Below are positions 46,861 to 49,459 of a DNA stretch of 64,000 nucleotides, one piece after another. Position 1 is the first letter of the stretch; every line of letters starts with the position of its first letter. Location of the stretch: UHGV virus genome UHGV-0142425. One strand, given 5' to 3'. The notes beneath the pieces are model-generated. The model was not told the DNA's origin. It was given only the letters and a program-made list of their open reading frames with translations, and searched no databases. Source of the DNA: a virus. The translations under genes were made by a program, and so were the position numbers.

Positions 46861-47549
46861 GCTGCACCATCACCTTTCACTTTCATCAATGTCAGGTTTC
46901 CGCAAAATACGGCACCAGTGTCGATATAATGCTGATTCCAGAATGTCTTCGGGCTTTTCACCGGAGTGTGACCAAAGATAAAACGATCTGCGCCCGAAAT
47001 TTCGCCACCAATATCATCCATCGAATCACTGATACGCTCGCGCGCCCAGACAACGTTGAAAAGCGGCACCTCCTTACCGAATTGATATTCATTATCCGGA
47101 TAGTCGGCATGGGCTATAACGATAGTTTCTTGCCCGGTGTTCAACTCAATGATATAGGGCAGTCGTCTTACCAACTCCACCAGCGCCCTGGCTAATATTT
47201 CCTGATCAGCGTCCAGCATGAAGAACCATTGACCGCCATTCATTAGCCAGTTATTCACGTTGCCATCAGGACTTAACGCATCGAGCATCAACCGCTCATG
47301 GTTCCCCATTACTGCCCTGAACCAGGGCATCTGCAATAGTTCCAGACATTCGACATTTTCAGTACCGCGATCGATAAGGTCGCCGACCGATATCAGTAAA
47401 TCCTGCGCCGGGTCAAAATCCACACGATGGAGTTCGGACATCAGTCTGGTGTAGCAACCATGCAGATCACCAACAACCCAGACATTCCTGTATTTGGTAC
47501 CGTCGATACGGTGATAAATTGTTGGTGCCATCATGTATTCTTCAGCCAT
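46857..47549 (-). CDS. Ser/Thr protein phosphatase (lambda-PPase / calcineurin-like metallophosphoesterase)
   Basis: 230 aa; motifs GDLHG, GDLIDRG, GNHE. Confidence 0.8.
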
Positions 47550-48157
47550 TCTTTAAGAGTCATCTGCGGAATACCTCCCATTTTCCCGCATGAAACAACG
47601 TCAATCTGTTCACGCGCAGACTGGAATAACAAAGGCAGGTGACTTAGATTTTTTGGCGTGCCGCCGGAGTGAACGCGTGGTTCTTGCGTAGCGTCAACAC
47701 CCACCAGGGCTACATGTTTGAATCCGATATGGAAAGCCAGGTTCAGAGCACCATATGCACTATTGCCGCTGGCAATTTCATTCTCATCTTCGCAAAGGCC
47801 GAAATGTGCGGACCAGCGCCATGCCCACCACTCTGGAGAGTTAGTATTTTTTGGCTCCGTGCCTCGTTCAGCCACACGACGGAAGCACAGAACGCCGTCT
47901 CTGACCTCACGTTCTTTAACATCGGGTAGCGCCATGCAATAACAAACACCACGGCGACGGCGGCCACGACCAACGCGTCGCATATTGTCTGGCGATGGAT
48001 CAAGGGTGAAAAAATAAGAAGCGCGGTTAAGCCAGTCGATGGCCCCATTGACCGCTATAATCGGCACTCCGCGCGGCGCAACAAAGTTTGCGGCGCTTGG
48101 GCCACTGCCGACGATAATAACGCGATCACTGCCTCTAAATTTATTCTTGGGAAACAT
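47531..48157 (-). CDS. Rossmann-like protein of unknown function (paralog A)
   Basis: 208 aa; VGSGPS ... IIAVNGA ... GNSAYGA ... VALVGVD, parallel to the adjacent gene. Confidence 0.45.
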
Positions 48158-48717
48158 TGAATTGCACTGCTCCTACTTGCATTCAAAATATGTAAATCTG
48201 CGTGTTTTTTGCGGGTATCCAGGAACTGCTGTTGCCATTTTGAAATAGACACCTGCGTTGGATTCCGTAGGGCTTGAGGGTGCGCGCCATGCCAATGAAG
48301 GCCGTTTTGCAGAGAACAGTCATAGCCGACTAATACCACTACTTCAGCCCCTGATTCAGCAGCCAGACTGATAGCCTGCGCGCCGCTATTTACCCCTTCC
48401 GCCGGTCCACAATATCGCCTGTACTCCAACGAAAATGATTTCGCCGCCGCCAGGTTGGCTGTCACTTTGCGGAATCTCCCTCCCGGTATGGTGGATCCGT
48501 ATTGCTTCCACCATGACAAATCACCGGCGTATAAGGCATAAATGTCATCGAACATCTGCCAGGAATTGTTAACCGCGATGATTGAACAGCCAGTTTTTTC
48601 TATAGCAGCACAGTCCTCACGAGTGAGTGACGGACCGCTACCGACACAAAAAACAGTCCTAGTCGCCCTGCGTGGTATGTTCATTCTCAGCTGCAAATTC
48701 AGCCTCCAGGCGAGCAT
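48055..48717 (-). CDS. Rossmann-like protein of unknown function (paralog B)
   Basis: 220 aa; VGSGPS ... IIAVNNS ... NSGAQA ... VVLVGYD; track ORF overlaps paralog A by about 100 nt, so one start is probably internal. Confidence 0.45.
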   Translation of the reverse strand: MLAWRLNLQLRMNIPRRATRTVFCVGSGPSLTREDCAAIEKTGCSIIAVNNSWQMFDDIYALYAGDLSWWKQYGSTIPGGRFRKVTANLAAAKSFSLEYRRYCGPAEGVNSGAQAISLAAESGAEVVVLVGYDCSLQNGLHWHGAHPQALRNPTQVSISKWQQQFLDTRKKHADLHILNASRSSAIQCFPRINLEAVIALLSSAVAQAPQTLLRRAECRL

Positions 48718-48880
48718 TCATTTCAGCGATTACAGGGTCCACTACAGCATCTGTTTCCTGTTCATTACGCGGCATGATCGATGCCAGCGATTCATAATTA
48801 GCCTTGGATGACACGATTATTCTCCCGATGTTAATGTGCGCTATATCAAATGGCGCATATGTACTAATTAATTTATTATT

Positions 48881-49459
48881 TTAAGCAGCATACAACCACT
48901 TGTCGCCGTTCAATACATGCTCAATAGCCTCACCCTTTTTAAGGCTTATGTATTCCAGGATGGCGGTTATCGCTTGTTCTGCACCATACGCAAGAACGAC
49001 GTAGTAACCTTCCTCTCTAAGCCTGCGCATCCAGGCGATCTGCTCTTTCGTCGGGGCTTTACCATTTGGTTCTTTAAGCTCAATTCGCATGCCGTGATAA
49101 ATACCGCATGCTTTATCGAGACTCATGTCCGGATAACCTTTTTTCTGCCCTTCAGCCTTCATTTTCCCGGCGGTTGCTTTTGAACGTTTCCCTCCGTTAG
49201 GCGTTGCATGCAACAGCTCATAGATGTCAGGGTGCTTGCGTTCGAAGTAATCAAAAATGAAAACCTGCTCGAAGTGCTCGCAATTTCCGTCGCGCAGGTC
49301 TGGGTTCTTTGCCAGTGCTGCAAGTGCCTTCGCATGTGGAGAAATTTCTTTTACCGGCGCAAGCGATAAGAATGGATCCTTTTTGGTTTTTGGCCTGGAC
49401 CGCCCCTTATTTCGACGCTCACTAAAAGCCTGAAACTCTTCCTCAGTAAAGCGCAACAT
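48881..49459 (-). CDS. VRR-NUC-like nuclease domain protein
   Basis: 192 aa; conserved acidic residues and GYPD...ELK pattern typical of the VRR-NUC fold. Confidence 0.55.
   Translation of the reverse strand: MLRFTEEEFQAFSERRNKGRSRPKTKKDPFLSLAPVKEISPHAKALAALAKNPDLRDGNCEHFEQVFIFDYFERKHPDIYELLHATPNGGKRSKATAGKMKAEGQKKGYPDMSLDKACGIYHGMRIELKEPNGKAPTKEQIAWMRRLREEGYYVVLAYGAEQAITAILEYISLKKGEAIEHVLNGDKWLYAA

Follow-up and report, generated by a model that had tools for sequence, protein, structure and literature searches.

Phage-encoded protein glycosylation has been described in mycobacteriophages: according to the account of Freeman et al. 2023 (PMC10527164) given in PMC12363180, glycosyltransferases of Che8, Corndog and Myrna decorate capsid and tail proteins and are dispensable in culture. 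Among single enzymes, the closest described relatives of the proteins treated here are the Maf glycosyltransferases, the sialyltransferases of glycosyltransferase family 42 (GT42) and the MptE-type pterin pyrophosphokinases. We analysed a 64,000-nucleotide stretch of the virus genome UHGV-0142425 (the window) and focus on its genes pmgO, pmgP and pmgQ. Positions 46000-50000 matched phage P1, P7 and P1-like phage-plasmids over their whole length, at 97.6-98.3% identity (megablast).

The genes pmgO and pmgP and their dispensability were already known, and the fold of their products had partly been foreseen by database labels. New here are the recognition of PmgP as a paralogue of PmgO, of PmgQ as the true partner of the pair and of the trio as a widespread module, as well as the finding that the overlap of pmgO and pmgP is no annotation error. 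The three genes probably form a dispensable accessory glycosylation module; to this reading as a whole, a Maf/GT42/MptE-like enzyme pair joined by PmgQ in a three-enzyme glycosylation module, we assign a probability of roughly 0.55. P1 is a reference phage in which a quarter of the genes are still labelled "putative morphogenetic", and the proposed module replaces two such labels together with a misleading "alpha-2,3-sialyltransferase" name.

Paralogy and overlap of pmgO and pmgP

The initial annotation pointed to a collinear motif series in the two products, and all four motifs occur in the same order in both: VGSGPS (PmgO 25-30, PmgP 16-21), IIAVN (46-50 and 33-37), NSxxxA (110-115 and 132-137) and LVGxD (129-133 and 151-155). 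BLASTP of PmgO against PmgP found the N-terminal motif alone (E 0.003). Family profiles built from 31 PmgO-type and 40 PmgP-type homologues, with the O-P fusion protein described below left out, aligned over 166 collinear columns with a probability of 97.7% and E 2.5e-12 (hhalign), and each protein cross-matched the PHROG family of the other. The resemblance is therefore far beyond chance, which bears out the proposed tandem paralogy; pmgO and pmgP are ancient, distant paralogues. In many genomes they are two genuine separate genes, so that neither disappears as the product of a frameshift, and neither was assigned to a structural or housekeeping family.

The conserved domain of PmgO spans residues ~20-200, while residues 1-19 and ~207-220 are modelled with low confidence and are not conserved. 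Invariant polar residues are N50, D66, S111, D133, C134, S135, H141, H143, H146, N179 and R182 in PmgO, and N37, D53, N132, S133, D155 and H173 in PmgP; both sets include invariant histidines after the G-x-D strand (H141/H143/H146 and H173, respectively), possible counterparts of the catalytic His188 of CstII. Since each family retains invariant polar residues of its own, neither protein looks like a dead copy.

The two genes overlap by 103 nucleotides, an arrangement also annotated in P1 and P7. PmgO residues 188-220, comprising the C-terminal helix and the tail, are read one base after the frame of PmgP residues 1-34, and the shared DNA encodes both the PmgO C-terminal helix (~194-206) and the first strand and GSGPS loop of PmgP (~7-21). 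The overlap arises because pmgO does not end at the conserved C-terminal CFPRxxLExxI element but continues into a tail, variable among homologues and with a low predicted local distance difference test score (pLDDT). An internal start for the downstream gene, suggested by the initial annotation, did not hold: the pmgP open reading frame (ORF) has no start codon ahead of ATG 48157, which lies 15 codons before the GSGPS loop with AGGAG 12 nucleotides upstream and is followed by no further start before that loop, and M1 is invariant across the 40 homologues of the family alignment. For PmgO, M12 (48684) is a possible alternative start. O/P overlaps of 4 to about 100 nucleotides recur in other genomes, which marks the overlap as a normal arrangement, probably one of translational coupling, and not as an annotation error.

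We also considered programmed -1 frameshifting at A_AAT_TTA (about 48143-48137), which would yield a PmgO-PmgP fusion mimicking the natural one. The pmgP gene does lie in the -1 frame of pmgO, the heptamer has the canonical X_XXY_YYZ form in the pmgO frame within the overlap, and fused O-P genes occur elsewhere. However, the chance expectation of such a heptamer in a 34-codon overlap is about 5%, and pmgP is equipped with an ATG and a Shine-Dalgarno sequence of its own. Frameshifting would moreover remove the conserved C-terminal LExxL helix of PmgO, which the natural fusion retains. A_AAT_TTA was found in P1 only, seven other overlapping O/P pairs having either no heptamer or one at a non-equivalent position, and the mechanism was rejected as extremely improbable.

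Fold relatives of the pair and the GT8-like partner PmgQ

In structure comparisons of the two proteins, the Maf glycosyltransferase 5mu5_A ranked first (scores of 14.0 and 12.9, with 163 residues aligned in each case), followed by the MptE-type pterin pyrophosphokinase 8sd5_A (11.6 and 11.9) and the GT42 sialyltransferase CstI, 2p56_A (10.9 and 10.6). SteA, thiamine pyrophosphokinases and mammalian GT29 sialyltransferases ranked lower, and for PmgP the scores fell sharply after those matches to generic alpha/beta proteins. As the initial annotation had proposed, both proteins have a Rossmann-like nucleotide-binding alpha/beta fold, and their models share it with Maf (5MU5) and MptE (8SD5). Maf has 632 amino acids with flanking domains, whereas PmgO and PmgP, of about 200 amino acids, correspond to the central catalytic-type domain only; identity to Maf is 16-18%, there is no flagellar context, and PmgO and PmgP form a paralogous pair with a partner of family GT8.

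The sole Pfam match of the pair was PF01973 "MptE-like", a family that holds both Maf and MptE. PmgO scored 23.7 bits and PmgP 20.9 bits against a gathering threshold of 34.6 bits; many family members carry precomputed PF01973 matches, and tandem-fusion relatives reach 41.5 and 43.6 bits. On a rival reading, PmgO and PmgP would be ATP-dependent pyrophosphokinases like MptE and the thiamine pyrophosphokinases (PDB 8SD5, 3MEL), or some different kind of nucleotide-binding enzyme with a small-molecule substrate. We consider this improbable. PF01973 includes the Maf glycosyltransferases, and Maf gave both the top match and the longest alignment. The pyrophosphokinases are cofactor-pathway kinases, whereas the partners of PmgO and PmgP are all glycan enzymes: the obligate partner is a GT8 enzyme, fusions and neighbours include sugar methyltransferases and other glycosyltransferases, and neither the fusions nor the neighbourhood contain genes related to pterin or thiamine. 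This company of glycan enzymes is the main reason for reading the pair as glycosyltransferases and not as pyrophosphokinases.

PHROG 4603 and RefSeq label PmgO an "alpha-2,3-sialyltransferase". To our knowledge, E. coli K-12 makes no sialic acid activated with cytidine monophosphate (CMP-sialic acid), so this name is almost certainly wrong on the substrate. Database labels of PmgP are "unknown" or "norphogenetic protein"; the latter typing error, from the original pmgM note, is now the product name of PmgP and PmgO homologues in many bacterial genomes.

The PmgQ profile matched GT8 structures at E values from 8.5e-7 (Skp1 alpha-galactosyltransferase, 6mw5) through about 3e-6 (glycogenin) to 1e-5. 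The DxD motif (D79/D81) and a downstream metal-binding histidine (H208) are invariant, in agreement with a GT8 relationship. The Pfam model PF01501 stayed below threshold, with E 0.14 in only 2 of 15 family members. PmgQ is shorter than the known GT8 enzymes glycogenin, Skp1 alpha-galactosyltransferase and the lipopolysaccharide (LPS) transferases WaaJ and WaaO.

Distribution of the trio and its proposed function

A viral-contig scan with the PmgP profile returned near-identical P1 copies only; wider loci came from a species-dereplicated genome scan, and an exhaustive profile search gave 7302 cluster representatives at E <= 1e-3, 505 of them at E <= 1e-30. Gene association was assessed in 29 loci outside the near-identical P1 copies, whose ORFs were scored by BLASTP against P1 proteins and by hidden Markov models of the O, P and Q families. 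In each of the 15 independent lineages whose flanking sequence was long enough, a PmgQ-type gene lay no more than 4 kb from the PmgP-type gene; 11 of the 15 also had a PmgO-type gene. Homologues of Ppp, PmgM, PmgN, PmgR and PmgS accompanied the pair only in P1-like elements (Escherichia, Pantoea). The enzymatic cluster with phosphatase and nuclease that the initial annotation described is thus an adjacency of the P1 lineage; elsewhere the pair travels without Ppp and PmgM and with PmgQ, a protein absent from that annotation, and it is PmgQ, not the phosphatase or the nuclease, that is the conserved third module member and functional partner of the pair.

The hosts of the module comprise Enterobacteriaceae, Pseudomonas, Zhongshania, Ochrobactrum, Brevundimonas, Methylophilaceae, Xanthomonas, Sinomicrobium (Bacteroidota) and a Longimicrobiales metagenome-assembled genome (MAG), and all hosts found are diderm bacteria. 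The phages are equally diverse: P1-like, lambdoid (Citrobacter rodentium phiNP), HK97-like siphoviruses, a podovirus-like contig, the 116-kb myovirus IME392 and the jumbo phage XacN1. The O-P-Q trio is a widespread mobile module, often within head-gene clusters.

Gene fusions were found as well. One contig carries an O-P fusion gene for a protein of 376 amino acids (P0051), and tandem O-O fusions occur among the profile-search matches. Others join an O-type domain to Big_1 immunoglobulin-like (Ig) domains (P0190, 556 amino acids) or to a TylF sugar O-methyltransferase (P0280, 374 amino acids), and in XacN1 a TylF-like methyltransferase is fused to a PmgQ-type domain (L113:5630-6946). A GT9-like assignment of the C-terminal domain in two further fusions, P0176 and P0283, had been a guess; Pfam gave no match and it was dropped. 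Other neighbours of the module are GT4-like and Nucleotid_trans-like genes, FkbM and other methyltransferases, and a cupin. In two unrelated phages a fourth conserved gene of ~190 codons follows O-P-Q (L003:9757-10335 and L109:10254-10835), with a weak Nucleotid_trans match (E 0.005) and a DxD-like motif; P1 has no counterpart.

In Pseudomonas and Zhongshania prophages the module directly follows the HK97-type capsid gene and precedes head-closure or head-tail connector genes; in an Ochrobactrum prophage P and Q come after the capsid and connector genes and before a head-closure gene. Three alphaproteobacterial prophages (L104, L105, L108) carry an O-type gene by itself, located after capsid and portal genes. 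A separate observation concerns the portal protein (Phage_portal_3) of the last, a Sphingomonadaceae prophage: it carries a C-terminal Acb1 domain (L108:1362-3224, E 6.4e-42), a phosphodiesterase directed against the cyclic oligonucleotide-based antiphage signalling system (CBASS), and this portal-fused anti-defence enzyme could be delivered with the virion.

A non-phage context was found in five related Pseudescherichia/Enterobacteriaceae MAGs (L089-L093), counted as one lineage. Here O, P and Q surround an adhesin, an inverse autotransporter of 1178 amino acids with IAT_beta and seven Big_1 domains (for example L089:357-9873), and a 999-amino-acid Big_1/RCC1 protein is likewise flanked by PmgO-, PmgP- and PmgQ-type genes, which suggests that the adhesin is glycosylated in this lineage. 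The position among structural genes, the fusion to Big_1 and the adhesin neighbourhood together point to a protein acceptor, although this is guilt by association. We rank protein (virion or surface) first among the acceptors, LPS core second, a small molecule third and DNA last. The glycosylation genes of mycobacteriophages reportedly lie in the structural gene region too, and O-P-Q does so in HK97-like prophages. Both systems are phage-encoded and dispensable, whereas the mycobacteriophage hosts are Actinobacteria and homology to PmgO, PmgP and PmgQ is presumed absent.

We propose the following mechanism. Once C1 repression is lifted the operon would be expressed, with PmgO and PmgP made from overlapping, translationally coupled genes as small single-domain cytoplasmic enzymes with the nucleotide-binding fold of the PF01973 superfamily. 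The natural fusion, the recurrent overlaps and the separate sets of invariant polar residues make it likely that they act as a pair, probably in a 1:1 complex. By analogy with Maf, GT42 and GT29, their donor would be a CMP-activated ulosonic acid. As far as we know, neither P1 nor K-12 encodes a nonulosonic-acid pathway, and the donor in that host would therefore be CMP-activated 3-deoxy-D-manno-octulosonic acid (CMP-Kdo). PmgQ would add a hexose from a uridine diphosphate (UDP)-hexose, and the three enzymes would build a short glycan on an acceptor which, by context, would be a head protein of the virion in most phages and, in one bacterial lineage, an adhesin with Ig repeats. The most specific form of the proposal, that P1 and many temperate phages of Gram-negative hosts glycosylate their own virion proteins, or other surface proteins of Ig-like type, with a Kdo-type glycan through heteromeric PmgO/PmgP and PmgQ, is speculative.

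The same donor fits a different acceptor. The module might remodel the host envelope during lytic growth, modifying the LPS core by WaaZ-like Kdo addition and GT8 outer-core-type hexose transfer. The P1 receptor is the terminal core glucose; its masking or truncation would limit superinfection and mean that fewer progeny are lost on cell debris. K-12 has no CMP-sugar other than CMP-Kdo, which is the sole plausible such donor in the P1 host and is used by WaaZ, the Kdo III transferase of the K-12 LPS core (GT73). Faint WaaZ matches were seen at the PmgP N-terminus and at a helix-strand motif. Against the WaaZ model TIGR04437, PmgP scored 11.8 bits (E 0.11) and PmgO gave no match; PF27901 matched the O-P fusion at the level "faint". 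GT8 includes the outer-core transferases WaaJ and WaaO, and PmgQ aligns with WaaJ across the DxD and histidine motifs. All hosts found are diderm, and three phages have the module next to their lysis cassette, in two of them upstream of the terminase. Nevertheless, the WaaZ and WaaJ similarities are not significant (probability 12-14%), and membership of PmgO and PmgP in the WaaZ family was rejected, as the TIGR04437 score is far below the cut-off of 200 bits. The module also occurs in Bacteroidota, Alpha- and Gammaproteobacteria, whose LPS cores are unrelated, the head-gene clusters and the adhesin neighbour fit a protein target better, and no plaque phenotype has been reported. We regard an LPS acceptor as unlikely.

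The initial annotation had raised nucleotide or DNA modification. The module would then glycosylate phage DNA bases or nucleotide precursors and so evade restriction, in keeping with its ribonucleotide reductase neighbours in two phages and with a C1-controlled P1 operon flanked by a nuclease and phosphatases. This is disfavoured and in our view very improbable. Ordinary restriction enzymes cut P1 DNA, for which methylation is the only modification known. Glycosyltransferases give the best structural matches, the nearest structures have proteins or glycans as their targets, glycan enzymes make up the partners and fusions, and neither the head-cluster nor the adhesin context fits. In a deletion survey, 24 of 29 P1 knockouts in genes of unknown function plaqued without defect and without an antirestriction change (PMC9024508).

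That survey is credited with pmgO, pmgP and pmgQ in Table 2 of a dCas12a CRISPR interference (CRISPRi) screen, in which pmgO, pmgP, ppp and pmgQ were themselves non-essential, with an efficiency of plating (EOP) of 0.7-1.4 (PMC10695390). In the same report CRISPRi of pmgN gave an EOP of 1.4e-2 and was scored essential, which disagrees with the lack of effect of the pmgN deletion and of the pmgO-pmgQ knockdowns.

Returning to the glycosylation module, several observations weigh against it. Foldseek against the PDB gave generic Rossmann matches only, the second-best fold matches are pyrophosphokinases, and PF01973 is the sole, sub-threshold Pfam match. Neither protein showed significant sequence membership of GT42 (CstI/CstII; PDB 2P56, 1RO7): the PmgO profile aligned its GPSL loop and NSG...GYD element to the CstII counterparts, but not significantly (E 0.26-1), and the PmgP profile had no matches in the PDB. 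The comparison with K-12 WaaZ gave a probability of 13-14% (hhalign). We know of no precedent for protein-linked Kdo, and our literature searches found no report of P1 glycoproteins and no functional study of pmgO, pmgP, pmgQ or their family in phages. The P1 operon is not adjacent to a capsid gene, and in a Sinomicrobium phage and the Xanthomonas jumbo phage XacN1 the module adjoins ribonucleotide reductase. Finally, single deletions or CRISPRi of pmgO, pmgP, ppp and pmgQ gave no plaque phenotype (PMC10695390, PMC9024508).

Should a virion protein be the acceptor, glycosylation of phage particles would extend beyond mycobacteriophages, with a bearing on antibody recognition of therapeutic phages and on P1-based delivery vectors. 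A Kdo virion glycan would, within the literature searches made, be the first such system in phages of diderm hosts and the first protein-linked Kdo. With an LPS acceptor, the module would serve to mask the receptor during the lytic phase. Under both readings the genes are dispensable, and P1 engineering can safely replace the operon.

Gene layout and neighbouring genes

Gene coordinates were mapped from the annotated P1 record AF234172, and all genes lie on the minus strand (Table 1).

Table 1. Features of the pmg region, in window coordinates
Feature	Position	Strand	Description
pmgL	49462-49707	-	AF234172 mapping
pmgM	48881-49459	-	VRR-NUC-like nuclease; separate transcription unit, upstream neighbour
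Operon control region	48858-48913	-	C1 operator Oppp and predicted sigma-70 promoter PpmgN
pmgN	48659-48814	-	51 aa; first ORF of the operon, overlaps the pmgO start
pmgO	48055-48717	-	220 aa; P7 hdmB; upstream paralogue, Maf/GT42-like glycosyltransferase fold
pmgO/pmgP overlap	48055-48157	-	103 nt, dual-coding
pmgP	47531-48157	-	208 aa; P7 hdmC; downstream paralogue, Maf/GT42-like glycosyltransferase fold
ppp	46857-47549	-	Lambda-type Ser/Thr phosphatase, between pmgP and pmgQ
pmgQ	46159-46860	-	233 aa; P7 hdmD; GT8-like retaining glycosyltransferase
pmgR, pmgS	further downstream of pmgQ	-	AF234172 mapping

Between pmgM and pmgO lie a promoter, a C1 operator and the small ORF pmgN. The operator, mapped from the P1 annotation, is at 48858-48874; both it and PpmgN are placed between pmgM and pmgN, and another pair of C1 operators is located after pmgQ, so that pmgN-pmgO-pmgP-ppp-pmgQ is annotated as a single C1-repressed unit. 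A consensus scan placed a promoter-like site at 48906-48878, and a terminator scan gave weak intragenic matches only. In P7 the counterparts of pmgN-pmgQ are called hdmA-D ("head morphogenesis"), with the reason that HdmB resembles orf7 from Pseudomonas phage D3.

The initial annotation set the pair between a phosphatase and a VRR-NUC-like nuclease; both are present, but Ppp lies just outside the span 47531-49459 that it had delimited. Ppp carries the GDLHG, GDLIDRG and GNHE motifs and matches Metallophos PF00149 (59 bits; cut-off 21.5) and PRK11439 (E 1.7e-83), as a lambda-type Ser/Thr phosphatase of the PPP family. Its annotated start, ATG 47549, overlaps pmgP by 19 nucleotides (47531-47549), and an in-frame ATG five codons downstream forms an ATGA stop/start overlap with the pmgP TGA, which leaves the start ambiguous. 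PmgM scored 21.2 bits against VRR_NUC PF08774, just under the cut-off of 23.8, and matched PHROG 5702 "Holliday junction resolvase" at E 4.8e-27.

Further downstream, pap (44015-44521, minus strand), an "acid phosphatase" in P1, matches the haloacid dehalogenase (HAD)-type phosphatase domain of polynucleotide kinase-phosphatase (PF25109, E 7.8e-12), which suggests a role in nucleic-acid end repair, not that of a generic acid phosphatase. This type rules out a PAP2 lipid phosphatase, whose presence would have spoken for LPS modification. Downstream of pap, on the minus strand at 41668-43820, lie ORFs of 193, 93, 221 and 230 amino acids, the last Ead/Ea22-like; they do not agree with the mapped pmgT/U/V coordinates, and the element in the window may differ from P1 there.

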